Positions 1 through 47,343 of a DNA stretch of 47,343 nucleotides are shown here, piece after piece. The stretch is taken from NCBI GenBank assembly GCA_964374065.1, contig CAYJWW010000004.1:1-47343 (forward strand). The letters are read 5' to 3'. Every line of letters starts with the position of its first letter. Position 1 is the stretch's first letter. The notes under the pieces were generated by a model. That model saw only the letters and a list, made by a program, of their open reading frames with translations. It was not told the DNA's origin and made no database searches. A program made the translations under genes and the position numbers. Source of the DNA: an uncultured Candidatus Saccharibacteria bacterium (GTDB lineage: Bacteria > Patescibacteriota > Minisyncoccia > UBA6257 > 2-01-FULL-56-20).

Positions 1-71
1 GCTCTCGGAGGGATTCGAACCCCCAATAACTGCTTCGAAGGCAGTCGTGATATCCATTTCACCACGAGGGC
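1..71 (-). tRNA. tRNA-Arg (anticodon TCG), 3' end cut by window edge
   Basis: Reverse complement gives GCCCTCG-TG-GTGAAATGGATATCAC-G-ACTGC-CTTCGAA-GCAGT-TATTG-GGGGTTCGAATCCCTC-CGAGAGC. Cloverleaf has a GTTCGAATC T-loop and anticodon loop CTTCGAA, so anticodon TCG. There is one C·A mismatch in the acceptor stem. Confidence 0.75.
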
Positions 72-6029: not shown

Positions 6030-6572
6030 ATGCCAGGCGCACTCGCCCGAAAAGTCAAAATGAGCCAGATCTGGGAAGGCAATGTGGTCCACCCGGTCAC
6101 GGTGCTTCGCGTTCCCGAAAACAAAGTTGTTTTGGTGCGCACGAAAGATCGCGACGGCTACGAAGCGGTGCAGATCGCGGCGCTGAAGACGAAGAGAGAG
6201 TTCCGCGGGGCATCTGGCGCAAAGCCGGGGGATACGGTGGATATCGCTCTTTTTAAGAGCGGAGATCGCGTGCGGGTGAGCGGCATTGCGAAGGGGAGAG
6301 GATTCCAAGGAGTCGTAAAGCGGCACGGATTCGGCGGAGGGCCCAAGACACACGGGCAAAAGAATCGTCTTCGCGCACCGGGCTCCATCGGCAGTACGGC
6401 GCCGCAGCGGGTTCACCCCGGCAGAAAAATGGCCGGGCGAATGGGAGGAAATCGAGTGACAGTGAAGAATCTCATCATCGTGAAAGTCGATCCGGAAACG
6501 CGAGAGCTTTTTGTGCGGGGGGCGGTTCCGGGACCGCGCGGTTCGCTGCTCGAAGTCGTAACGCAATCGTAA
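6030..6572 (+). CDS. rplC: 50S ribosomal protein L3
   Basis: MPGALARKVKMSQIWEG aligns to the L3 N-terminus (M.GL.GKK.GMTRIF). A GGGPKTHGQ-like motif is present. The track ORF starts 7 codons upstream. Confidence 0.93.
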   Translation: MPGALARKVKMSQIWEGNVVHPVTVLRVPENKVVLVRTKDRDGYEAVQIAALKTKREFRGASGAKPGDTVDIALFKSGDRVRVSGIAKGRGFQGVVKRHGFGGGPKTHGQKNRLRAPGSIGSTAPQRVHPGRKMAGRMGGNRVTVKNLIIVKVDPETRELFVRGAVPGPRGSLLEVVTQS

Positions 6573-6579
6573 ACAACAC

Positions 6580-7215
6580 ATGAAGGCAGCGCTCCAGAAT
6601 TGGAAAGGAGAAACAACCGGCGAGATCGAAATCCCGAAGGAGGTGTTCGGGGCGCCTTGGAGGCCCGCGCTCGTGCAGCAGGCGCTTTTGGCGCAGCTCG
6701 CGAATCGGAGAGACCCGATCGCGCACGCAAAGACGAGAGGAGAAGTCCGAGGCGGCGGCAAGAAGCCGTGGCGGCAAAAAGGCACCGGCCGAGCCCGCCA
6801 CGGTTCCATACGTTCGCCGCTCTGGGTGGGCGGCGGGAAGGCGCACGGGCCGAGCTCCCTGCGGGACTACGGGCAGAAACTCAACAAAAAAATGAGGTAC
6901 CGCGCGCTCACCTCAATCCTTTCAAAAAAGTTCGGGGAAGGACAGGTCCGTATTTTCGATACCCTGGAAACGGATTCGTGGAAAACAAAGCAGCTATGGC
7001 ATTCGCTCCATGCCGCATTAAAGACGGAGAAGGGCCGGAAAAGGATGGACGTGCTTCTCGTGCCTCGGGCGGAAAGCAAGAATTTGTTTCGGGCAGGGGC
7101 GAATTTGGAAAAAACTAAAGTACTTTCTCCGGAATCGCTGAATGTATACGATCTTTTGAATCATCGGTATGTGTGCATCGACCAGCGATCAATCCCCGCA
7201 CTGATTCGAAAATGA
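6580..7215 (+). CDS. rplD: 50S ribosomal protein L4
   Basis: 211 aa. ...GGGKKPWRQKGTGRARHGS...LWVGGGKAHGP is L4. Confidence 0.95.
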   Translation: MKAALQNWKGETTGEIEIPKEVFGAPWRPALVQQALLAQLANRRDPIAHAKTRGEVRGGGKKPWRQKGTGRARHGSIRSPLWVGGGKAHGPSSLRDYGQKLNKKMRYRALTSILSKKFGEGQVRIFDTLETDSWKTKQLWHSLHAALKTEKGRKRMDVLLVPRAESKNLFRAGANLEKTKVLSPESLNVYDLLNHRYVCIDQRSIPALIRK

Positions 7216-7487: not shown

Positions 7488-8311
7488 CCATGAAATCATT
7501 TTCACCGACAAGTCCGGGCCGCCGGCAAATGCAGATCGTACGGTACGGTCTCTTGAGCAAGGTGCGGCCGCATAAGGCGCTCACCACGCGCCTTAAAACG
7601 CACGCGGGCAGAAACTCGGCGGGACGCATAACCGTGCGGCATCAGGGGGGCGGGAACAAGAAGCTCTATCGGCTCGTGGATTTCAAAATGAATCGCATCG
7701 GGGAAAAAGCGGTCGTCGAGACCATCGAATACGATCCATACCGCACCGCGTTCATCGCAAAGGTCAAATATTCTGATGGCGAACGGCGTTATATCCTGGC
7801 GCCCCATACCGTGCAGGTCGGTCGCGAGATAACGATCAACGACTCGGCTCCGCTTCAGCCGGGGAACAGGATGAGGATTAAGAACGTCCCGGTAGGGTAT
7901 CAGGTTCATAACGTCGAACTCTTCCCGATGAAGGGAGGCCAGCTTGGCCGGGGGGCGGGCGCCTCGCTCGAGGTGCTTGCGCATGCCGACGGACACAGCG
8001 ATTTAAAGCTCCGGTCGGGAGAAGTGCGTCGCGTACCCTGGGATTCGTTCGCGTCCGTCGGACAAGTATCGAATCCCGAGCACGGGCTAACCGTCTCCGG
8101 TAAGGCCGGGCGTTCCCGCTGGCTTGGCATTCGGCCCACTGTTCGCGGATCGGTGATGAACCCCGTCGATCATCCGTACGGTGGCGGCGAAGGGCGAACT
8201 CAACGCGGGACTCGGCGGCCAAAGACGCTTTGGGGGAAGGTGACCGGCGGAAGGAGAACGAGAAAGAAAGGGAAGTGGTCGAATCGATTGATCGTAAAGC
8301 GGAAGAAATAA
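7484..8311 (+). CDS. rplB: 50S ribosomal protein L2
   Basis: 275 aa with L2 motifs (GRNSAGRITVRHQGGG...; VMNPVDHPYGGGEGR). Confidence 0.95.
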   Translation: MTMKSFSPTSPGRRQMQIVRYGLLSKVRPHKALTTRLKTHAGRNSAGRITVRHQGGGNKKLYRLVDFKMNRIGEKAVVETIEYDPYRTAFIAKVKYSDGERRYILAPHTVQVGREITINDSAPLQPGNRMRIKNVPVGYQVHNVELFPMKGGQLGRGAGASLEVLAHADGHSDLKLRSGEVRRVPWDSFASVGQVSNPEHGLTVSGKAGRSRWLGIRPTVRGSVMNPVDHPYGGGEGRTQRGTRRPKTLWGKVTGGRRTRKKGKWSNRLIVKRKK

Positions 8312-12167: not shown

Positions 12168-12548
12168 ATGCATTACGATTTTCTCATACAAATAAAGAAT
12201 GCGGCTCGAGCGAAGAAGGAGTCGCTCATCGCTCCATTTTCAAAGTTCGACCTGGAGATCGCCCGCTTGCTTGTCGGTGCGGGTTATCTTCACGATGCGC
12301 AAAAAAAGACGATAAATAAGAAACACTACATCGAAGTGAAGCTCCGGTATCGAGGGGGCGAGCCCGCATTCACGAATTTTCGCGTGATCAGCAAGCCCGG
12401 AAGAAGGGTATACGCCGGATACCGCGACATGAGATCCGTGAAGCAGGGATACGGTTTGGGTTTTTTCTCCACTCCCTCAGGAGTGCGTTCCAATCGGGAT
12501 GCCCGAAAGCAAAAAGTCGGTGGAGAATATTTATTCGAAGTGTGGTAA
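12168..12548 (+). CDS. rpsH: 30S ribosomal protein S8
   Basis: 126 aa. MHYDFLIQIKNA...GGEYLFEVW is S8. Confidence 0.93.
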   Translation: MHYDFLIQIKNAARAKKESLIAPFSKFDLEIARLLVGAGYLHDAQKKTINKKHYIEVKLRYRGGEPAFTNFRVISKPGRRVYAGYRDMRSVKQGYGLGFFSTPSGVRSNRDARKQKVGGEYLFEVW

Positions 12549-12552
12549 ACCC

Positions 12553-13095
12553 ATGTCGCGCCTAATACGAAAGCCCATAATCGTTCCGGCGGGAGTCACC
12601 GTGCAGTCGGAGGATTCGTTCGTGCGAATTCAGGGTTCCAAAGGGGAGCTCCGCGTCCCCGTGCTTTCCATGTGCAAGATCGAAGTCGAACCCGGGGGGG
12701 TTCGGGTCGTCGCAGATCTCGGGAGCAAGAAAAGCAGGAGTTTTGCGGGAACTATGGCCGCCAAGATCCGCAATGCGATACAAGGAGTGCAAGACGGGTT
12801 CACCAAGAAACTCGAGATCGAAGGAGTGGGATATCGGGCGATGATGGAGGGGGACCAGCTCGTGCTTTCCTTGGGATACGTCCATCCGGTTCGTTTCGGG
12901 GTTCCCGAGGGCGTTACGGTTCAGGTTGAGAAAAACGTCATCACTGTCTCCGGAACCGACCGGGACCTCGTGGGTCAGACTGCATCCAGCATCAAGATGC
13001 TCAAACGGCCGGAGCCTTACAAGGGCAAAGGCATTCGATATCAAGGAGAAGTTATTCGACGCAAGGCGGGAAAGAAGGCGGTCGCTTCCGGATAG
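12553..13095 (+). CDS. rplF: 50S ribosomal protein L6
   Basis: Internal ATG gives MSRLIRKPIIVPAGVTV..., the L6 two-domain pattern. Confidence 0.93.
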   Translation: MSRLIRKPIIVPAGVTVQSEDSFVRIQGSKGELRVPVLSMCKIEVEPGGVRVVADLGSKKSRSFAGTMAAKIRNAIQGVQDGFTKKLEIEGVGYRAMMEGDQLVLSLGYVHPVRFGVPEGVTVQVEKNVITVSGTDRDLVGQTASSIKMLKRPEPYKGKGIRYQGEVIRRKAGKKAVASG

Positions 13096-13126
13096 ACGAT
13101 GTTCTCATGCGTATAGAACCTAAAAT

Positions 13127-13480
13127 ATGAAGTACACCATTCAGAAGATCAGAATTCGGCGGAAGCGCCGCATCCGTGCGAGAATCGCGGGGGTTTCCGA
13201 CCGGCCGCGGCTTTCCGTATTCAGGAGCAACCAAGGAATCTATGCCCAGCTCATCGACGACAGGGAAGGAAGGACGCTTATTGCAGCTTCTTCCCGTGAA
13301 GTAAAAGCGGGCGACAAGGCGAAAAAGACGGATAAAGCCTTTTCGGTCGGTGAGTTGCTCGCGAAACGGGCGAAAGAAGCGGGGGTTGAGAAGGCCGTTT
13401 TCGACAGGGGCGCCTATAAGTTTCACGGCAGAGTGAAGGCGGTTGCCGAAGGCGCAAAAAAGGCAGGATTGGAAGTTTAG
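13127..13480 (+). CDS. rplR: 50S ribosomal protein L18
   Basis: ...[20 protein letters not shown]...[21 protein letters not shown] is L18. Confidence 0.93.
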
Positions 13481-31615: not shown

Positions 31616-31693
31616 TTTGACAAAGGCTGCGCTCGCGACGCCTTCCCATTTAAGCAGCCTTTCATTAGAATCAAGAAACCCCGCCTTCGCCGA

Positions 31694-31743: not shown

Positions 31744-34584
31744 ATGAAGTATCACTTCCGTCAAATAGAGCAGAAGTGGCAGAAAAGATGGCTTGAAGAA
31801 AAGTCGTTTCAGGCGCGCGAAGATTCGGGAAAGCCGAAGTACTACCAGCTTGAGACGTTTCCGTATCCTTCCGCCGAAGGACTGCATGTGGGGCACCCGA
31901 AGGGATATATCGCCGAAGACATTCACGCGCGTTATATGCGCATGAACGGCCGCGAAGTGCTCTACACGATGGGGTGGGATGCGTTCGGTCTCCCTACGGA
32001 AAACTACGCCTTAAAAATAGGAAAGACACCGAACGAGGTTGCCAAAGCGAATGTGGCAAACTTTAAGCGACAAGTGCGCATGTTCGGGCTTTCGTACGAC
32101 TGGGACCGCGAGATCAACACTTCAACCCCCGAGTATTACAAGTGGACCCAGTGGCTTTTTATCCAATTTTTCAAGAAAGGCCTTGCGTATCAAGCGAGTG
32201 CGAACGTAAATTGGTGCCCGAACTGCGAAACGGTGCTCGCGAACGAGCAGGTGGAAGGCGGCGCGTGCTGGCGCTGCAACACCCCCGTCGTGCAGAAGCA
32301 GATGGAGCAGTGGTTCTTGAAGATCACCGACTACGCAGAGCGCCTTCAGGCCGACCTCAAGGGGCTCGATTGGCCGGAGGCGACGATCAAACGCCAAAGA
32401 GATTGGATAGGAAAATCAGAGGGAGCCCTTCTTGAGTTCCCGATTCAAGATTCAAGTTTCAGGGTTCGGGTATTCACCACGCGGCCGGACACGCTTTTCG
32501 GCGCGACGTTCATGGTCTTGGCGCCCGAGCATCCCTTAATCGAAAATTTGAAATTGAAAATTGAAAATTGGGGCGAAATCCAGAAGTACATCGAACAAGC
32601 GCGGCATAAAACCGAGCTTATGCGGAAGGAGGAACGGGAGAAAACGGGATTGGAGCTCAAGGGGGTCAAAGCGATGAATCCGGCCACGAAAGAAGAGATT
32701 CCTATTTTCATCGCCGATTACGTGCTCATGGGCTACGGCACGGGAGCGGTCATGGGCGTGCCCGCGCACGACGAGCGGGACTACGAGTTCGCGAAAAGGC
32801 ATGAGCTCCCGATGCGGACCGTCGTAGAGCCCCTCTATACACAAAGCAGGGAGCCGGGAAAGATCGCGGAGGGAGTGCCGTTTGATGAACGCGATGCCAT
32901 CATTGCGATCGTGAAGCACTGGTCCGAGGAGAAGTATATGGCGCTTAAGTGGAAGAAAGTCGCGTGGGGAACCTTCCTCACGGGCGGCGTTGAGAAAGGT
33001 CAGACGGCGGAAGAGGCGGCCAAGGCGGAGATCAAGGAAGAAACGGGGTACCTCAATCCCGCGCTCGTGAAGGATTTCGGCATCATTCATGGTAAATTTT
33101 ACCACGTCCCGAAGAACGTGAACCGGTTCGCTCATGCCCGCGTGCTTTATTTTGAACTGCGCGATGATGCGCAAGGGGATATCTCGGACGAGGAGCGGCA
33201 GATTCACGAGATATTGTGGCTCTCGACCGAAGAACTCGCGAAATTTCTGACCCCCGATACCCACCAGCATGCGTTGCGGATGTTTCTCGGCACGCAGGGA
33301 GCGTATGAGGGCGAAGGGGTTTTGACGAACTCCGGCGAGTTCAACGGAATGGACACCGGAACAGGGAGGTGGGAGATTGCGAAATTCGTCGGCGGCGCGC
33401 GGAGAATCCAATATAAAATCCGCGATTGGTCCGTCTCGCGGCAGCGGTACTGGGGCGTGCCGATCCCGATGATCCACTGCGCGACCTGCGGCGCGGTTCC
33501 GGTGCCCGAGAGCGACCTCCCGGTGCTTCTTCCCAAAGATGTGGATTATCGTCCGAAGGGCAAGCCGCCGCTTGCGAGCTCGGAAAAATTCATGAACGTG
33601 AAGTGTCCGAAATGCGGCGGCGAAGCGCGCCGGGATCCGGAGACGCTCGATACGTTCGTTGATTCTTCTTGGTATTACCTGCGCTACACGGATCCGAAGA
33701 ACGAAAAGGAGATCTTCAATAAGGATAGCGCGGCCCACTGGCTGCCGGTTGACCTTTACGTGATCGGCGCGGAGCATACCGTGCTCCATCTGCTGTATTC
33801 CCGGTTTATCACGAAATTCTTGTACGACGAAGGATACGTGAGTTTCACGGAGCCGTTCACAACGCTTCGGCATCAAGGGCTCGTGTTGGGCGCGGACGGG
33901 CAGAAGATGTCCAAATCGAAGGGAAACGTGGTGAACCCCGACGACCTTATCGCGGAGTTCGGGGCGGATACCGTGCGCCTTTATGAGATGTTCATGGGGC
34001 CCTTCGAGAACGGCCAGCCGTGGGATCCGCAGGGAGTTTTGGGCACGCACCGGTTCCTCCATCGTTTTTGGAGTTTTATGAGAGAGCGGATCTCGAGTTC
34101 TGATTTCGCGAGTGCGGAGACGCCGCGAATTCAGCGGGCCGCGGTTCATAAGGGTATCAAGAAAGTGGGGGAGGATATCGCCGGCTTCAAATTCAACACG
34201 GCCGTTTCGTCTTTGATGATACTTTTAAACGAGCTGGAAGGAGCGGCGATCGGGAAAAGAGACGTCGAAGCGGTGCTAAAGCTCCTGCATCCGTTCGCGC
34301 CGCATGTCGCTCAAGAACTCTGGGAAATGGCCGGGTACAATACCATTCTCGATTTCGAAGCGTGGCCGGCGCATGATCCGGACCTTATCGTCAAAGCGAC
34401 ATTCCGGCTCGTCATTCAGATAAACGGAAAAGTCCGCGATACTGTCGAAGCGCCCGCGGGCGTTTCCGAGGAGGAAGCCGCACGCCTCTCGCTTCAAAGT
34501 GCGCGTGTGACGCGCGCACTGGGAGGGATAAAGCCCCGCAAGGTGATTTACGTCAAAGATCGCCTTATCAACTTTGTTCTGTGA
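31744..34584 (+). CDS. leuS: leucine--tRNA ligase carrying an inserted Nudix-fold domain after the CP1 editing domain
   Basis: HVGH, TTRPDTLFGATF, GTGAVMGVPAHDERDYEFA, NSGEFNG, RDWSVSRQRYWGVPIP and KMSKSKGN are in LeuRS order. 946 aa, with ~155 extra aa between EFA and NSGEFNG. Confidence 0.93.
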   Translation: MKYHFRQIEQKWQKRWLEEKSFQAREDSGKPKYYQLETFPYPSAEGLHVGHPKGYIAEDIHARYMRMNGREVLYTMGWDAFGLPTENYALKIGKTPNEVAKANVANFKRQVRMFGLSYDWDREINTSTPEYYKWTQWLFIQFFKKGLAYQASANVNWCPNCETVLANEQVEGGACWRCNTPVVQKQMEQWFLKITDYAERLQADLKGLDWPEATIKRQRDWIGKSEGALLEFPIQDSSFRVRVFTTRPDTLFGATFMVLAPEHPLIENLKLKIENWGEIQKYIEQARHKTELMRKEEREKTGLELKGVKAMNPATKEEIPIFIADYVLMGYGTGAVMGVPAHDERDYEFAKRHELPMRTVVEPLYTQSREPGKIAEGVPFDERDAIIAIVKHWSEEKYMALKWKKVAWGTFLTGGVEKGQTAEEAAKAEIKEETGYLNPALVKDFGIIHGKFYHVPKNVNRFAHARVLYFELRDDAQGDISDEERQIHEILWLSTEELAKFLTPDTHQHALRMFLGTQGAYEGEGVLTNSGEFNGMDTGTGRWEIAKFVGGARRIQYKIRDWSVSRQRYWGVPIPMIHCATCGAVPVPESDLPVLLPKDVDYRPKGKPPLASSEKFMNVKCPKCGGEARRDPETLDTFVDSSWYYLRYTDPKNEKEIFNKDSAAHWLPVDLYVIGAEHTVLHLLYSRFITKFLYDEGYVSFTEPFTTLRHQGLVLGADGQKMSKSKGNVVNPDDLIAEFGADTVRLYEMFMGPFENGQPWDPQGVLGTHRFLHRFWSFMRERISSSDFASAETPRIQRAAVHKGIKKVGEDIAGFKFNTAVSSLMILLNELEGAAIGKRDVEAVLKLLHPFAPHVAQELWEMAGYNTILDFEAWPAHDPDLIVKATFRLVIQINGKVRDTVEAPAGVSEEEAARLSLQSARVTRALGGIKPRKVIYVKDRLINFVL

Positions 34585-34611: not shown

Positions 34612-35499
34612 ATGCAAGGAGCATTCGTGATTTTAGGGATACTCGCGCTCCTCATTGTCGGCGGTTTAGTTATCGGTGTGCAGGGCCCAGCTCCTCGGGA
34701 GCCCGTTTTCGTTTCCACGAGCACCATTCCCGCGGCGCAGGGGGGCCAGCCAAGACAGTTGGCGGCGCCCTCGGCGCCCGCCGCGCAGCCGCCGTCAGAT
34801 CCGCCTCCGACGGATATTCCGCCGGGATTTACCGCGTCGCAAATCTCAACCCATTGGCGCAAGGTTCGCGTCGGAAACCCATATCGGTATGGAACGGGAA
34901 TCGATGCGTACCGCCACATGACTCTCTCTTCACTGGTTCCGCAAGGTGAAACCTTGTCGCTCGGGGGATGGAAGCTCAAGGGAGGCGGAGGAGAAGCGAC
35001 GATCCCCGCCGCCATTGCAACATACTCCCCGACCGGGTCGGGAGAGGAACGGCCGATCGCTCTGGGAGCAGGGGATACGGTCTTCATCTATTCATCTCGG
35101 AGCCCCTTGGCGAAAGGTTTTCGGATGAATAAGTGCATGGGGTACCTTGAAAAGGTATACCAGTTCAAGCCGGCGCTTCCGCTCGCGTGCCCCGCGCCGT
35201 ATCGCGACCGTTCGGAGGTCGCAAAGTTCCCCCTAAAATGCCAGGATCATATTCTCTCGCTTCAGGCCTGCGGGCTACCCTCCATACAAACGGACGACAG
35301 TGCGTGCGCCTCGTTCTTGGCGAAGATCAACTATGGCGGTTGTTTTGAAAAATATCGCGGCGACGCCGATTTCTTTTCCAAAGAGTGGCGCGTTTTTCTT
35401 GGAGATCAAAGCGGCGAGCGGGATATCGCAAGCCCTGCCCGCGGGTTTTTGGAACTCTACGACGCGGAGGGGAAACTCGTGGATCAGTACGTATATTAG
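34612..35499 (+). CDS. hypothetical secreted/membrane-anchored protein with a lamin-tail-like (LTD) domain and a Cys-rich C-terminal region
   Basis: N-terminal TM/signal region, a Pro-rich linker, GETLSLGGWKL...DTVFIYSS as in LTD domains, and a C-terminal region with 8 Cys. Confidence 0.55.
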   Translation: MQGAFVILGILALLIVGGLVIGVQGPAPREPVFVSTSTIPAAQGGQPRQLAAPSAPAAQPPSDPPPTDIPPGFTASQISTHWRKVRVGNPYRYGTGIDAYRHMTLSSLVPQGETLSLGGWKLKGGGGEATIPAAIATYSPTGSGEERPIALGAGDTVFIYSSRSPLAKGFRMNKCMGYLEKVYQFKPALPLACPAPYRDRSEVAKFPLKCQDHILSLQACGLPSIQTDDSACASFLAKINYGGCFEKYRGDADFFSKEWRVFLGDQSGERDIASPARGFLELYDAEGKLVDQYVY

Positions 35500-36593: not shown

Positions 36594-37151
36594 CTAGTTC
36601 CGTTTTCGGGGAGGCATTACGGAGGGGATCAATCCGCCCAAGACCGTCATGATAATATCCTCGGTCGTGTCCCAGCGGTCGGCAAGGGCCGCGGTTCCCA
36701 GAAACCAATCGGAAAAATACTCCATCATTTCGTAAAGCACCGCGGTCGAGGCCACGGCGGTGAGTATCAGATAAAACCGAACTGTAAAAGGCGCGGTTTT
36801 TCCCGCCGACTCTTCCTTCATGCCGACGAACCATCGTACGGCAATTCCGGTCGCGAGCCCTCCGGTGAAATGCGTCAGATTGTCATACCACGGAAAACGG
36901 GCGTAGAGATGCATGATATCGCCGCCGGCATCGAGGACTATCGCGGCAATTACGGTGATCCACAGATAGAGCGGGGGTCGATATCTGCCTCCAAGACGGT
37001 TCTCCATATATCCAAGCGCGCCGAGGGAAAACAGGGCGGTCAGAACAAGGCCGGCCCACGAGAATTGAGGGGTAAGCGGGAGGATGCCGAGAAGACCCAA
37101 GAGTTCGAGTCCTATGATCGCGATGAATAACAGACGGGCGAAGAGGATCAT
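36594..37151 (-). CDS. hypothetical integral membrane protein
   Basis: 186 aa from the ATG at 37151 with ~6 TM helices. The upstream part of the track ORF is the tRNA-Ser sequence. Confidence 0.55.
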   Translation of the reverse strand: MILFARLLFIAIIGLELLGLLGILPLTPQFSWAGLVLTALFSLGALGYMENRLGGRYRPPLYLWITVIAAIVLDAGGDIMHLYARFPWYDNLTHFTGGLATGIAVRWFVGMKEESAGKTAPFTVRFYLILTAVASTAVLYEMMEYFSDWFLGTAALADRWDTTEDIIMTVLGGLIPSVMPPRKRN

Positions 37152-37153
37152 GG

Positions 37154-37243
37154 TGGCGGAAGCGGGAGGATTCGAACCTCCGATACCCTTTCGGGCATAC
37201 CGCATTTCGAGTGCGGCCCATTCAACCGCTCTGGCACGCTTCC
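37154..37243 (-). tRNA. tRNA-Ser (anticodon CGA), long variable arm, CCA encoded
   Basis: Reverse complement gives GGAAGCG-TG-CCAGAGCGGTTGAATGG-G-CCGCA-CTCGAAA-TGCGG-TATGCCCGAAAGGGTATC-GGAGGTTCGAATCCTCC-CGCTTCC-G-CCA. Type II tRNA with a perfect acceptor stem. Confidence 0.9.
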
Positions 37244-37294
37244 TCTGAGCTATTACCTTATCAGATTCTATACCGAAGCGACAAGTGCGGAGAT

Positions 37295-37323
37295 TTGACA
37301 CCCACATCACTATCCGGTATAAT
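37295..37323 (+). promoter_or_regulatory. consensus sigma70 promoter TTGACA-17-TATAAT
   Basis: TTGACA at 37295-37300, exactly 17 nt, then TATAAT at 37318-37323. Both hexamers match the consensus perfectly. Confidence 0.65.
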
Positions 37324-37329
37324 CATCCG

Positions 37330-37602
37330 GCAATGAAACGCTATTGCCACGGCTTCAATACGGCCGATATGAACACCCTTCCGCAGGGCGTGATTTCCTT
37401 CGTTTGGAAGTCGTATCGGTTGTTTAGCCAAGGCGATAGATTCATGGGAGCATCATAAACCATACAAACCATTAATCTACTTTTCATCAATTTCATTTGT
37501 TATTGAAGAACGCCTCGGCTAAACGGTCGGGGCGTTTTCCGTCCAGGGGCCGTTTAGGACGTTCTTTGACAACCGGAGTTCACCGGGAGGAGATGGGAGC
37601 AC
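37330..37602 (+). ncRNA. ~270-nt untranslated leader or sRNA downstream of the consensus promoter, upstream of the MFS gene
   Basis: No ORF of 60 aa or more. Hairpin GGCAAT/ATTGCC at 37329-37348. A terminator-like CGCC...GGCG-TTTT at 37511-37538. GGGAGGAG RBS at 37586-37593. An optional leaderless 41-codon ORF spans 37333-37458. Confidence 0.35.
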
Positions 37603-38775
37603 ATGAGAGAAAATATCTGGAAGTTGTACGTCGTACAAGCCTTGCCGGAGGCGATGTTCCTCATCCCGGTCGCGGTGCCTTTCTTCAGGGAGAATGGCCT
37701 CTCGCTCCAGGAGATATTCGTTCTCCAGGGCATCTTCGCGGCCGTGATCCTGATCCTCGAGGTGCCTACGGGGTACATCGCGGACGCGTGGGGGCGCAGG
37801 AACGCCCTTCTCCTCTCGGCTTCCTTTGGCGTCTTAGGGGTCGTGGTCTACGCGACGGGATTCACGTTCGAGCAGTTCGTCGTATCGGAGATCCTTCTCG
37901 CGGTCTGTTTCAGCCTGCGGTCGGGGACCATGGACGCAATGCTCTTCGAATCGCTTGCCGCGCTCGGGCGCGAATCGGAATACCGAAAGCGCGCGGGAGA
38001 GATGCGTTTCTCGGGAAGCATAATGCAGGCCTCTGCGAGCATCGCGGGAGGATTCATCGCGATCGTCGCTCTTCGCCTCACGCTCTGGGCGACCGCCGTT
38101 TCCTACGCGGTCTACTGCATCTTCGTACTGCTTTTAAGGGAACCGCCGCGGAAGACGTCGACAGATGGATCGCACTGGGCTCGGATCGTCCGCATCACCA
38201 AGGAGGCGCTCGGGAGAAACAGCGCGATACGCGACATCGCCATGCTCTACGCGGTTTTGGCCACGCTCACGCTTTCGCTTGTGTGGTTTACGCAGGCGTA
38301 CGGCGTGGAGGTTAAGGCGCCGCTATGGCTCTTCGGCGCCGTGCACGCGATAACCATGGTCGCTTCCGGATTCGCGGCGAAATCCGCCCACAAGCTCCAG
38401 TCGCTCATGGACGATCGGGTGCTTCTTCTCTGCGTTGCGGGGATTGTGGCGGGAAGCTATCTCGCACTGGGGTTTGTCGCATCGCTCTGGGGGCTCGCGC
38501 TCTTCGTTCTGGGCCGCGCGATGTACGGGCTTGTGGGCGTGATCATCACCGACATGGTGAATCGCTTGACGACGTCCGACGTGCGCGCGACCGTGCTCTC
38601 GATCCAGGCCTTGGGGTACCGTGCGCTTTTTGTGCTTCTCTCGCCGATTCTGGGATTTTTGGGCGACACAAGAGGCGTACATAGCGCGCTGCTCTTCGCG
38701 GGCATTGGCGGGAGCATCGCGATCGTCGCGGTGTTCCTCGCGATGCGCCGCGTGTGGGCGCGGATCCCAACGTAA
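37603..38775 (+). CDS. MFS transporter
   Basis: 390 aa, 12 predicted TM, MFS-like D/R-rich loop motifs (e.g. ADAWGRRN). Confidence 0.8.
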   Translation: MRENIWKLYVVQALPEAMFLIPVAVPFFRENGLSLQEIFVLQGIFAAVILILEVPTGYIADAWGRRNALLLSASFGVLGVVVYATGFTFEQFVVSEILLAVCFSLRSGTMDAMLFESLAALGRESEYRKRAGEMRFSGSIMQASASIAGGFIAIVALRLTLWATAVSYAVYCIFVLLLREPPRKTSTDGSHWARIVRITKEALGRNSAIRDIAMLYAVLATLTLSLVWFTQAYGVEVKAPLWLFGAVHAITMVASGFAAKSAHKLQSLMDDRVLLLCVAGIVAGSYLALGFVASLWGLALFVLGRAMYGLVGVIITDMVNRLTTSDVRATVLSIQALGYRALFVLLSPILGFLGDTRGVHSALLFAGIGGSIAIVAVFLAMRRVWARIPT

Positions 38776-38781
38776 CGCATC

Positions 38782-38817
38782 CCCCCGCCTTTCGGAGTGC
38801 GAAAGGCGGGGGATTTT
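38782..38817 (+). terminator. intrinsic terminator with a 13-bp perfect stem (CCCCCGCCTTTCG-gagtg-CGAAAGGCGGGGG) followed by ATTTT
   Basis: The arms at 38782-38794 and 38800-38812 are exact reverse complements. Located 7 nt after the MFS stop. Confidence 0.7.
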
Positions 38818-41004: not shown

Positions 41005-41070
41005 AATCTCTTGAGATGGTTCAAGCTTTCAGCTAGAATATACGGGAAATAAGAGAAATCGGCAATAACC

Positions 41071-41542: not shown

Positions 41543-42178
41543 ATGCCCTATCTGTTAGAATTTCTGACCGTCGCGCTCGTGCATCTCCTTGCCGTCATGA
41601 GCCCGGGGCCCGATTTTGCGATGGTAAGCAGGAATGCGTTGCTTCAGAGCCGGCGGGCCGGAATTCTTTCGGCGGCAGGGTTGGCAATCGGGATACTTGT
41701 CCATGTGATGTATTCCCTCTTGGGCATCGGGCTTCTCATCGCGCAGTCGGTCCTGCTTTTCAATGCCATAAAATGGGCAGGTGCCGCCTACTTGATATAT
41801 GTCGGCTGGCAATCGTTGCGCGCAAAGTCGTTTCATGCGCATGCCGCCGATGAAAGAGACGGATCCACACATGCCATGACTGATATCGCGGCGGTTCGCA
41901 TGGGATTTCTCACAAACGTGACGAACCCCAAAGTGACGCTTTTCTTTCTGGCGCTTTTCACTCAAGTTGTCGATCCGACGACGCCGCTTGCCATTCAGGT
42001 TCTCTACGGGCTCGAGATGTCTTTCGCGACGTTCCTTTGGTTCTCGTTTGTCGCGGCGATCCTCTCGCACGGTTCTATAAAGCGCCGATTCGTTCCCATC
42101 CAGCACCGGGTTGAGCGGGTTTTCGGGGCAGTTCTCATCGCTTTGGGCATCCGGGTCGCTCTTTCGGGGAAAGGTTAA
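41543..42178 (+). CDS. LysE/RhtB-family amino-acid exporter
   Basis: 211 aa, 6 TM. N-terminal ...LLAVMSPGPDFAMV... is typical of the LysE superfamily. Confidence 0.8.
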   Translation: MPYLLEFLTVALVHLLAVMSPGPDFAMVSRNALLQSRRAGILSAAGLAIGILVHVMYSLLGIGLLIAQSVLLFNAIKWAGAAYLIYVGWQSLRAKSFHAHAADERDGSTHAMTDIAAVRMGFLTNVTNPKVTLFFLALFTQVVDPTTPLAIQVLYGLEMSFATFLWFSFVAAILSHGSIKRRFVPIQHRVERVFGAVLIALGIRVALSGKG

Positions 42179-44552: not shown

Positions 44553-47343
44553 CTATGGGCGTTTGGTTCCGGATTCGGTATCGGGCAGTGTTTCATCCCT
44601 CCGGATTGCGGCGAGCGTCCGATTGAATTGGGTTTCCGGATCCGGACCGAGGCCGCCCACCAGGCCGTACTTGAAGATGATGAAATATGAAGCGATCGAG
44701 CTCACGAAGCCGATGAGGAAGATCCACGGGAGCGCGTCTTCGGGTCCGGTCACGATATCCGCGACGCCCAAGACTTGCCCGCGAGGCCGGACGTTCACCG
44801 TTGCGAATGCGTTTGACACGCCCGCATTCATAGTAGCACTTATCTGGTTCGTGGTAGTGCGCGGCGTCGTCCCCGTAAGCACGGTCGCGCGGAAGCGGAT
44901 CGCCTTTTCTTCATTCGAAGCGACGGTTCCCAAGGAAAGCCCCGAGGCGGCGATGCCGTCAGGAGCCACGTTGTTGTTTATCGTCGTCGAACCGGGGACG
45001 TATGAGAGTTCCTGCGGGAGAATATCCCGAACGATGATCTGGCCGGCGGATGTGTCGGTGTTCCGCACGCGGATCTCGAACTCAACGGTATCTCCGCCCT
45101 GTGCCTCGATCGAGTTCGAATACGCGGTTTGGTTCAATGTCCGGTTCAATCCGGCTTTCGTGATAAGAAGTCTGGCGGGCGTCCCAACGGTCGTAGTCAC
45201 GAACACCGTTTCCGAGTCATTCGCTACGCCGTTTTGATTTGAGCAGGTGATGCTATAGGTGGTGGTGAGGCTCGGAGAGGTCTGTTCCGACCCCGAGAGC
45301 GCTTTAGACCCGGACCATCCGCCCGATGCGGTGCACTGAGCTGCGTTCGCAGACGTCCATGTGAGTATCGAGGATTGCCCCTGCGCAATGCTCGAAGGCG
45401 AAGTCGCGAGATTCACCGTCGGCTGGAACGCGCTCACGAACACCGTTGCTTGCGCGGAGACGGAGCCTCCGGAGCCGCTGCAATTCATGGAATATGTCGT
45501 TGTCTGCGCGGGGAACACGGTTTCGTTGCCGGAGACGTTTCGTGATCCAGACCAGCCGCCGGAGGCGGTGCAGGAAGTCGTGTTCGTCGAAGTCCATGTA
45601 AGGATCGACGAGCCGCCCTGCGAGATACTTGTCGGATTCGCGTTCAGCGTAAGCGTCGGCTGATTCTGAACCACGCTCACCGTGACGGTGGCGTTCGCCT
45701 GCACCTGCTGGCCGGTCTGGTTCTGGCAGACGATGGTATAGGCGGTCGTTGAAAAGGGATTTATCGTTTCGCTGCCGGATAGATTTTTCGTTCCGGACCA
45801 GCCGCCCGCCGCGCTGCAGGTCGTGGCGTTCGTCGAGCTCCACGTCAAGACCGAGGATTGTCCCTGGGTGATCGTGGTCGGACTTGCGGCGAGCGTGACC
45901 GTCGGAGCCGGCGGTTGATTGACGTTAATGGTTACCGAATCGGTCCCGCTGCCTCCCGCACCGGCGCACTGAACCGTATAGGTCCGCGAAGAGGTGAGCG
46001 CCCCGGTCGATTGCGAGCCGGACGTACCCGTGAATCCCGAGGGGAATACGGTGCACGAGGTCGCATTTTGCGAAGTCCACGTGAGCGTTGCCGACGCATT
46101 GTGGTCGATATTTACGGGGCCATCGGAGCCGTTCGCTTTGATGTCCGCCGTCACCTGGGGAACATTTCCCACGTTCACGACGACCGAGTCCGTCGCTGTT
46201 CCGCCCTGCCCGCTGCAATTGAGGAAATATGTTTGCGAGAACGTCAGATTCCCCGTCGACTGCGACCCCGAGGCGCCCGTCCACCCGGTGGGCGAGACGC
46301 TGCAGGTCGTGGCGTTCGTGGAGGTCCATGTGATCGTGGCGAAAGCGTTGAAATTGATGGTTATCGGACCATCTTGGTTGTTCGCTTTGATGTCAGCCGT
46401 CACCTGTGGGGCATTGCTTACATTTACCGTCACCGAATCGGTAGCCGAACCGCCCGGGCCGTTGCAGGTCAGGGTGTACGTTTGCGAGCTTGCGAGATTC
46501 CCCGTGGACTGCGAACCGGAAGTACCCGTCCAGCCGGTGGGCGAGACGCTGCAGGTGGTCGCGTTCTGCGAGGTCCAGCTTATCGTCGCCGAAGAGTTGA
46601 AGGTGACGGTCACGGGGCCGTCCTGGCCATTGGCTTTGATATCGGCGGTTACATTTCCTGCCTGCACGTTTATCGTCACCGAGTCAGTCGCGTTACCGCC
46701 CGGGCCGGTGCAATTTACCGTATAGGTCTGCGAGTTTGTGAGATTTCCAGTAGACTGCGAGCCGCTCGTACCCGACCAGCTGCCTGGAGTGACCATGCAC
46801 GAAGTCGCGTTCTGCGAGGTCCACGAGATGGTCGCGGATTGCCCCGACTGGATCGTGACGGGCCCGTCCTGGCCGTTCGCCTTGATGTCGGCGGTTATAT
46901 TGCCCGCCTGCACGTTTACCGTCACCGAGTCAGTCGCGTTACCGCCCGGACCAGTGCAGTTCAAGGTGTATGTCTGTGAACTTGTGAGGCCTCCGGTCGA
47001 CTGCGAGCCCGATGTGCCTGACCAGCCGGTCGGCGAGACGGAACACGATGTCGCGTTCGAGGAGATCCAGCTTATGGTCGCTGAAGTCCCCGATTGAATC
47101 GTGATCGGCCCGTCTTGCCCATTCGCCTTAATGTCGGCAGTTACGTTCCCTGCCTGAATATTCACCGTTACCGAATCCACCGCCGACCCTCCTGGGCCGC
47201 TGCAGTTTAAGGTGTACGTTTGCGATGCCGTGAGGTTCCCCGTGGACTGCGAACCGCTCGTGCCCGTCCACCCGGTGGGCGAGACGGAGCACGAAGTCGC
47301 GTTCTGCGAGGTCCACGAGATGGTCGCGGATTGCCCCGACTGG
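44553..47343 (-). CDS. giant repetitive surface protein (5' end beyond window): five or more ~82-aa Ig-like repeats, three ~80-aa variant repeats, a DUF11/'conserved repeat domain', and a C-terminal TM
   Basis: The reading frame stays open to the window edge; the track ORF starts at an internal GTG at 47180. Repeats share ...ATISWTSQNATSCxVSPTGWSGTSGSQSTGNLTSSQTYTLNCTGPGG. GDTVEFEIRVRNTDTSAGQIIVRDILPQELSYVPGST is DUF11-like. A TM helix sits near the C-terminus. Confidence 0.75.
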   Translation of the reverse strand, partial: QSGQSATISWTSQNATSCSVSPTGWTGTSGSQSTGNLTASQTYTLNCSGPGGSAVDSVTVNIQAGNVTADIKANGQDGPITIQSGTSATISWISSNATSCSVSPTGWSGTSGSQSTGGLTSSQTYTLNCTGPGGNATDSVTVNVQAGNITADIKANGQDGPVTIQSGQSATISWTSQNATSCMVTPGSWSGTSGSQSTGNLTNSQTYTVNCTGPGGNATDSVTINVQAGNVTADIKANGQDGPVTVTFNSSATISWTSQNATTCSVSPTGWTGTSGSQSTGNLASSQTYTLTCNGPGGSATDSVTVNVSNAPQVTADIKANNQDGPITINFNAFATITWTSTNATTCSVSPTGWTGASGSQSTGNLTFSQTYFLNCSGQGGTATDSVVVNVGNVPQVTADIKANGSDGPVNIDHNASATLTWTSQNATSCTVFPSGFTGTSGSQSTGALTSSRTYTVQCAGAGGSGTDSVTINVNQPPAPTVTLAASPTTITQGQSSVLTWSSTNATTCSAAGGWSGTKNLSGSETINPFSTTAYTIVCQNQTGQQVQANATVTVSVVQNQPTLTLNANPTSISQGGSSILTWTSTNTTSCTASGGWSGSRNVSGNETVFPAQTTTYSMNCSGSGGSVSAQATVFVSAFQPTVNLATSPSSIAQGQSSILTWTSANAAQCTASGGWSGSKALSGSEQTSPSLTTTYSITCSNQNGVANDSETVFVTTTVGTPARLLITKAGLNRTLNQTAYSNSIEAQGGDTVEFEIRVRNTDTSAGQIIVRDILPQELSYVPGSTTINNNVAPDGIAASGLSLGTVASNEEKAIRFRATVLTGTTPRTTTNQISATMNAGVSNAFATVNVRPRGQVLGVADIVTGPEDALPWIFLIGFVSSIASYFIIFKYGLVGGLGPDPETQFNRTLAAIRRDETLPDTESGTKRP
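45180..47343 (-). repeat. in-frame tandem coding repeats, period 246 nt (type A) and ~240 nt (type B)
   Basis: Example: 46798-46851 and 47290-47343 are 54/54 identical (two periods apart). Repeated protein motifs are listed in the CDS entry. Confidence 0.85.

Follow-up and report, generated by a model that had tools for sequence, protein, structure and literature searches.

What is the function of the roughly 270 nucleotides that separate a perfect consensus promoter from the start of an MFS transporter gene? A sequence-only reading of this locus took the spacer for a structured untranslated region and left the choice between a riboswitch, a leader-peptide attenuator and a small RNA. The question is of some general interest: as Patescibacteria (candidate phyla radiation) are seldom grown in culture, to our knowledge next to nothing is known of how they regulate their genes. 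In what follows, the window is the whole stretch of 47,343 nucleotides that was analysed, and the leader is the part of it that lies between the promoter and the MFS gene.

The promoter, the MFS gene and their recurrence at other loci

The elements that frame the leader are the following.

37154-37243, minus strand: tRNA-Ser(CGA), divergent from the promoter of the MFS leader
37295-37300, plus strand: -35 hexamer TTGACA, read directly from the sequence
37318-37323, plus strand: -10 hexamer TATAAT, read directly, with a 17-nt spacer to the -35 hexamer
about 37330, plus strand: predicted transcription start (G), the seventh nucleotide past the -10 hexamer, from promoter geometry only
37585-37592, plus strand: Shine-Dalgarno sequence GGGAGGAG of the MFS gene, 10 nt before the ATG at 37603
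37603-38775, plus strand: MFS transporter gene (390 aa, Pfam MFS_1 at 2e-17), the proposed regulated gene
38782-38812, plus strand: terminator-like hairpin closing the transcription unit, a 13-bp stem followed by AUUUUCAU

The promoter pointed out in the sequence-only reading is indeed there, both hexamers being perfect, and TTGACA-17-TATAAT is the sole site to match at 12 of 12 positions in the 17 kb that were scanned. Promoter-like sites in general are not enriched in those 17 kb (6 seen against 7.0 expected), and about 0.02 perfect sites would be expected by chance in 47 kb, counting both strands and spacers of 16-18 nt; this last figure is our own arithmetic and assumes equal base frequencies. 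At the other loci described below, the -10 boxes read TATATA, TATACA or TTACAT, frequently with an extended TG, and TTGAC(A/T/G) stands at the equivalent -35 position in 11 of 12 leader types. Another TTGACA, at 37566-37571, was considered as a second promoter and rejected: there is no -10 box at 16-18 nt from it, and in most loci the motif differs from TTGACA.

The strong ribosome-binding site and the MFS gene, also part of the earlier reading, are likewise in place. The hairpin at 38782-38812 closes the MFS gene, so that promoter, leader, MFS gene and terminator form one unit. The best NCBIfam scores of the protein (19-37 bits, against cutoffs of 131-870) are with the HP1165 family, TetA(P), Tet(A/B/C) and 2_A_01_02; no score lies above a curated NCBIfam cutoff that would place it in a named efflux family of the Drug:H+ antiporter type, and no sequence relative was found in the PDB. 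Given these below-cutoff similarities, we speak of a putative efflux pump.

Orthologues of the MFS gene were searched first by protein, and the closest relatives (42-56% identity) were located on their contigs. The layout of the leader recurs before the orthologues in L001, L002 (identical to L004, a record labelled Saccharibacteria), L005, L084, L085 (identical to L086 and L230) and L231, always in the same order: a -35/-10 promoter, a nearby ATG, a short ORF, a conserved hairpin and the MFS gene. Since these loci were found via the protein, the RNA features are not a search artefact. Scanning metagenome contigs with a pattern of the hairpin added L215, L216, L217, L226, L220 and a variant (L212/L214/L228), about half of the 21 metagenome matches being false positives in unrelated coding sequences; a relaxed version of the pattern gave more than 120 matches in viral contigs, which were discarded as generic terminators or a phage coding repeat. 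The layout is known from 10 further distinct metagenome-assembly sequences besides the window, and every readable instance lies directly upstream of an orthologous MFS or membrane-protein gene. This conservation of the whole layout at orthologous loci is the strongest argument against chance. The element is absent before the more distant homologues that were inspected (Peribacteria, Bacteroidales, other loci, P0008-P0013), and a covariance model built from 12 sequences and applied to 658 kb of loci, those of about 80 more distant homologues among them, recovered the known instances and no others.

No conserved regulator or partner gene was seen near the MFS loci. A Peptidase_C39 gene (1687-2151) stands beside the MFS gene in L084, and in that locus only; L002 carries genes for MacB-type ABC efflux and an Arr-ms (rifampin ADP-ribosyltransferase-like) gene (931-2854 and 12371-13141), and L001 has a tmRNA gene (1925-2228, 49.4 bits) on the same contig as smpB (6497-6940). 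In the variant L212/L214/L228, the leader precedes a 125-aa membrane protein and not an MFS gene, and has neither the TTGAC -35 nor a start-site AUG; its ORF, 48 codons long, uses another frame, yet spans the antiterminator strand discussed below (the copy in L214 is on the minus strand, at about 7877-8110 of the reversed locus).

Alternative helices and the leader reading frame

Within the transcribed spacer, the following elements can be distinguished, all on the plus strand.

37333-37458, plus strand: leader ORF of 41 codons, MKRYCHGFNTADMNTLPQGVISFVWKSYRLFSQGDRFMGAS, with ATG at 37333 and TAA at 37456-37458
37333-37348, plus strand: segment 1, the 5' strand of the anti-antiterminator (AUGAA followed by CUAUUGCC), paired with 37432-37445 in the MFE fold
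37349-37419, plus strand: central folded domain within the leader ORF, from the MFE fold
37420-37445, plus strand: segment 2, comprising the antiterminator strand and the strand that pairs with segment 1
37420-37435, plus strand: antiterminator strand UUGUUUAGCCAAGGCG in segment 2
37432-37445, plus strand: part of segment 2, GGCGAUAGAUUCAU, partner of segment 1
37459-37505, plus strand: A/U-rich linker between the leader stop and the terminator, unstructured according to folding
37506-37538, plus strand: T1, intrinsic-terminator-like hairpin (5' strand 37506-37520, loop AAAC 37521-37524, 3' strand 37525-37538)
37548-37557, plus strand: segment D (GGCCGUUUAG), complementary to the T1 apex at 37519-37528
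37560-37572, plus strand: pyrimidine-rich motif CGTTCTTTGACAA past segment D, conserved in most loci, not in L001 and L220

The sequence from 37330 to 37545 folds at -72.5 kcal/mol (z = -4.6), and none of 200 shuffles (0/200) did as well. When the homologous spacers of the relatives are aligned, as had been suggested for this region, the layout proves conserved, with three mutually exclusive and covarying helices: T1, the antiterminator and the anti-antiterminator formed by segments 1 and 2. T1 is GC-rich and its 3' strand ends in UUUU; its 12 bp are paired in each of the 12 sequences (100%), 4 of these pairs covary, and RNAalifold predicted the hairpin independently. A simple terminator scan of the window did not call T1, because the U run has only four residues and is partly taken into the stem. 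The hairpin had been described before as a CGCC…GGCG-UUUU element some 65 nt ahead of the ribosome-binding site, and only the distance needs correction, to 47 nt. The competing antiterminator joins 37420-37435 to 37511-37526 over 18 bp, again with 4 covarying pairs; it is 88.8% paired, against 30-50% in controls with a slid register, and has one mismatch in most sequences. In every locus the 5' half of T1 has its best partner at the same position of the leader ORF, and the antiterminator strand corresponds to codons 30-35 of that ORF.

A helix between segments 1 and 2 is found in the MFE folds of most instances. Its complementarity is specific to each lineage (ACCGCC/GGCGGU, GCAGCC/GGCUGC, CUAUUGCC/GGCGAUAG and GAAGAUUGCC/GGCGGUCUUU), and individual shuffle p values are modest (0.01-0.3). 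The hairpin GGCAAT/ATTGCC, previously noticed right at the predicted 5' end, is present (37329-37334 with 37343-37348) but is not itself a conserved element; its 3' arm, ATTGCC, pairs with 37432-37439 as part of the conserved long-range helix. In the window the central domain folds into a three-way junction of about 75 nt, whereas most other loci have one hairpin in its place; this hairpin covaries, as seen in the L002-type loci, and its loops are variable. The linker between stop and terminator is 53 nt long in the window versus 23-33 nt at the other loci, and this single-stranded stretch is not conserved.

An Rfam scan of the leader gave no family at gathering threshold or at E<=10, no T-box matched in the window at E<=10, and the scan of five other leaders gave no family matching the leader. 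Rfam otherwise returned tRNA, one tmRNA and sub-threshold matches driven by terminators, the weak ones to RsaE, PsrR1 and Spot42 being driven by the T1 hairpin. The further idea of an unrecognised riboswitch class is not supported, as the interior of the domain has neither conserved sequence nor a common architecture between lineages: what the central domain keeps from one lineage to another is only pairing potential and the reading frame. No conserved sequence was found in it between lineages, which argues against a ligand-binding aptamer. The leader element represents a family missing from the Rfam catalogue but belonging to a well-known kind of regulation, and so far it has been encountered in uncultured bacteria.

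The reading frame is the other constant of these leaders. At the other loci the corresponding position is taken by an ORF of 32-44 codons (48 in the L214 variant), and gene callers overlooked the leader ORF. In 11 of 12 sequence types the ATG sits 6-9 nt past the -10 hexamer, so that the predicted start of transcription is at most about 3 nt from the AUG and no space is left for a Shine-Dalgarno sequence; with the start predicted from the promoter, the 5' UTR has 0-3 nt and contains none. By promoter geometry only, this implies that the leader mRNA is leaderless; a literature search found no paper on leaderless translation in Patescibacteria. The frame that begins at the leader ATG contains 0 stops at any locus, whereas the two alternative frames have 33 and 31; shuffled sequences keep the leader frame open with a probability of 0.02-0.34 per locus. 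Between the AUG and the GGC of segment 2 there are, depending on the locus, 73, 79, 82, 100 or 109 nt, five distances that all keep the GGC in frame, and the stop codon constantly lies 6-7 codons past this GGC.

The peptide itself shows no such constancy. Variation at the three codon positions is 0.159/0.211/0.138, with no excess at the third; the residues that seem conserved (NRQ, RGSN, LGGLS) coincide with RNA pairing segments, and they change radically where the helices covary, for instance from GG to GC together with NRQ to MQP in L005. From the even variation by codon position and these radical changes, we infer that it is the translation of the leader that matters, not its product. No run of more than two identical codons or residues was found in the leader ORFs, and no residue of the sensitive region is common to all lineages. 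An amino-acid-specific attenuator was rejected for want of codon runs; a general sensor of translation stress needs neither regulatory codons nor an arrest motif.

The 41-codon ORF had been placed exactly at the start of transcription in the sequence-only reading; it is found at 37333-37458 and begins about 3 nt after the predicted start. Its interpretation as a leaderless regulatory leader peptide is the best-supported one, considering the placement of the AUG in 11 of 12 types and a frame that remains open through the antiterminator strand. The proposed succession of promoter, conditional terminator and ribosome-binding site also stands, being conserved and now provided with a covarying antiterminator; the term untranslated region, on the other hand, is not supported.

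A candidate ribosome-dependent attenuator and competing explanations

We think that the leader probably regulates the MFS gene as a ribosome-dependent (leader-peptide) transcription attenuator, a reading drawn from comparison and folding of sequences. Transcription would start about 3 nt before the AUG and produce an effectively leaderless mRNA, so that a ribosome may bind immediately once the 5' end is exposed. This ribosome would traverse segment 1, the central domain and segment 2 along the 41-codon frame. If segment 2 (37420-37435) pairs with 37511-37526, T1 is blocked; if segment 1 and the central domain engage it instead, T1 should be free to form. A ribosome that stays abreast of the polymerase would cover segment 2, or would have just unwound it, and T1 would form and stop transcription near 37538. 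A ribosome lagging in the first two thirds of the frame, through translation stress (a ribosome-targeting antibiotic, for example) or slow decoding, would let segment 2 capture the nascent 5' half of T1, and this pairing would allow the polymerase to read through into the MFS gene. What the sequences show are the elements themselves, their conservation, the covariation of the helices and a frame that is kept open; we infer where transcription starts, that the frame is translated and that T1 terminates, as well as in which direction the switch responds and to what kind of signal.

This scheme was explored by thermodynamic folding, with the ribosome modelled as an unpaired mask of 27 nt. Before the 3' half of T1 is made, its 5' half pairs upstream with a probability of 0.75-0.98 in 13 of 13 modelled sequences, and this pairing drops once the P site reaches the last third of the ORF, clearly at most loci but slightly in L220 and L214. 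At full length, the probability of T1 in the window is 0.93 without a ribosome, together with the helix between segments 1 and 2; it sinks to about 0 for P-site positions at codons 7-17 and recovers to about 0.7-1.0 from codon 27 onward. The other loci follow the same trend but do not all behave alike in this equilibrium model, T1 winning at nearly every ribosome position in L002, L216 and L226, and the antiterminator winning without a ribosome in L001, L084 and L214. With such uneven equilibrium defaults among loci, the outcome must be kinetic. As for the signal, the weak similarity of the MFS protein to Tet and multidrug efflux families makes induction by ribosome-targeting compounds a reasonable guess.

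It is unlikely, in our opinion, that the leader senses a specific small molecule rather than translation stress in general. Such a sensor may take the form of a nascent-peptide arrest, as in TnaC, SpeFL and ErmCL, occurring in the region 6-7 codons before the stop and responding to the MFS substrate. It may also be a five-segment switch, in which segment D and the GUUCUUU motif act as a second conditional terminator; we know of no description of such two-step logic for attenuators. Segment D is complementary to the T1 apex over 8-14 bp in 12 of 12 instances, the pairing covaries when the window type is compared with the other types, and in sequence the segment nearly duplicates the 5' extension of the antiterminator strand. 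It is transcribed only past the point of termination, and the attenuator model, to whose textbook design it is a small unexplained addition, gives it no role. Segment D with the CGTTCTTTnACAA motif is listed for the window, L001, L002, L005, L084, L085, L215-L217, L220, L226 and L231. Two other functions were considered and set aside. Complementarity of segment D or of the CGUUCUUU motif to the Shine-Dalgarno sequence of the MFS gene is no better than in shuffles (p 0.08-0.96), and an H-type pseudoknot between the T1 loop and segment D is sterically unlikely because the entire loop pairs and the linkers measure just 0-2 nt, a judgement reached by reasoning rather than computation.

One may ask whether the ORF is incidental to a switch made of RNA only, either a riboswitch or an RNA recognised by a protein or some other trans-acting factor. 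Binding of the ligand or factor would then stabilise the domain that segments 1 and 2 close and thereby select the terminator. A closing helix around a folded domain, facing a competing antiterminator, is the usual riboswitch layout; the unusual stability of the fold (z = -4.6), the covariation of the central hairpin in L002-type loci and the lack of a codon run that would indicate an amino-acid signal all go in this direction. However, the domain has no sequence in common between lineages and is a junction of about 75 nt in the window but a single hairpin elsewhere, no Rfam family recognises it, and no conserved regulator gene lies nearby. This hypothesis also leaves unexplained the fixed AUG, a frame kept open at five lengths and the constant distance to the stop, and we give it a rather small chance of being correct. 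The same ORF invites the opposite view, in which it is an ordinary small-protein gene followed by a partial terminator, read-through being leaky and constitutive and the peptide functional, for instance as something that the MFS protein handles. The tight linkage of a conserved short ORF to a transporter would fit, as would a G-G/D/C motif 6-7 residues before the C terminus and the Peptidase_C39 gene that adjoins the MFS gene in L084. But that neighbour occurs at one locus only, the codon positions are equally variable, the conserved residues are RNA pairing segments that undergo radical changes where the helices covary, and a covarying antiterminator of 18 bp would have no role in a plain terminator; we regard this explanation as quite improbable.

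Finally, the stretch from the promoter to T1 could be an independent trans-acting sRNA of about 210 nt that lies upstream of the MFS gene by chance. A strong promoter and a terminator do bound a discrete short transcript, the weak Rfam matches are sRNAs, and there is a precedent in other bacteria, where terminated attenuator RNAs are able to act in trans (PMC7968998). Those matches are nevertheless far below threshold and concern the terminator only, the single-stranded linker is not conserved, and the readable instances all adjoin an MFS or membrane-protein gene with no intervening promoter: reading the sequence by eye, we saw no promoter-like site between T1 and the start of the MFS gene. 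We consider an independent sRNA the most improbable of these explanations.

Comparison with known systems and further features of the window

The ribosome-dependent attenuator that we favour has obvious relatives. With the attenuators of trp, his, leu, thr and pheA it shares a short leader ORF and a set of 1:2, 2:3 and 3:4 helices of which 3:4 is an intrinsic terminator, as well as, in the proposed model, the principle that the position of the ribosome on the leader picks the fold. Unlike them, it has no runs of regulatory codons, its ORF spans segment 2 instead of ending before it, it is leaderless by prediction, it possesses the additional segment D, and it precedes a transporter gene and not a biosynthetic operon. 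Another parallel is the ribosome-mediated attenuation of resistance genes, which is documented for hflXr (PMC6310831) and for the toiL uORF (PMC12121999). In hflXr, toiL and the msrD leader (bioRxiv 10.1101/2021.11.29.470318), a uORF senses slowed or stalled ribosomes, and premature termination before a gene of the resistance or efflux type is relieved, as we propose here; the sequence of the peptide need not be conserved between such systems. The MFS leader differs from these by its longer ORF (32-44 codons), its predicted leaderless start and its uncultured, Patescibacteria-like hosts, and by being known from sequence alone; the MFS protein also differs from their targets, in that its similarity to Tet and multidrug families is weak and below NCBIfam cutoffs.

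Mycobacteria provide documented cases of attenuation by leaderless short ORFs (bioRxiv 10.1101/834739), in which an ORF with a 5'-terminal AUG controls downstream genes (see also PMC4633059), much as we suggest for the MFS leader. However, the mycobacterial polycysteine uORFs rely on runs of cysteine codons and sense cysteine, no set of terminator and antiterminator is implied for them, and the lineage is a different one. Transcriptional riboswitches share with the MFS leader a closing helix that competes with an antiterminator/terminator platform before a transporter gene; unlike them, the MFS leader has no ligand core or Rfam match, and maintains a reading frame from its 5' end.

If the leader is truly an attenuator, at least some Patescibacteria couple transcription with translation, use leaderless initiation, and switch on a transporter when translation falters. 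If, in addition, the MFS protein is an efflux pump, these episymbiotic bacteria, which live amid antibiotic producers, would possess an inducible circuit for resistance or detoxification. Should either the arrest sensor or the five-segment form turn out to be true, it would be among the first characterised cis-regulatory mechanisms in Patescibacteria.

The surroundings of the leader call for a few more remarks. The promoter had been described as back-to-back with a tRNA-Ser gene on the other strand, and the divergent tRNA-Ser(CGA) is present, but the link is specific to this genome; a functional tie between the two was rejected, as the adjacency is not kept at other loci. The tRNA gene encodes its CCA, with the 3' end at 37154, and 2 nt past it comes an ORF for a DUF2238-like membrane protein of 185 aa (36597-37151, minus strand, ATG 37151-37149). 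The pair looks like a tRNA-mRNA co-transcript, in which 3' processing of the tRNA would leave the DUF2238-like mRNA nearly leaderless, which would be a second hint of leaderless translation in this organism. A -10-like hexamer, TAGAAT, repeats in the window at 37265-37270 (minus strand), 31666-31671, 41034-41039 and 41556-41561; one copy, about 22 nt upstream of the 5' end of tRNA-Ser, would give divergent promoters back-to-back with that of the MFS leader.

Elsewhere in the window, two ORFs have no Pfam match (34612-35499, plus strand, 295 aa, and 44553-47180, minus strand, 875 aa), and a fourth tRNA gene (1-71, minus strand), cut by the window edge, is detected by Rfam and missed by ARAGORN. 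The leucyl-tRNA synthetase (31744-34584, plus strand) places the organism among the Patescibacteria (Paceibacteria/Parcubacteria-like); it carries a NUDIX domain inserted at residues 403-505; this insertion is common to most Patescibacteria homologues, some of which add PF01725 (Ham1-like) and PF06821 domains.
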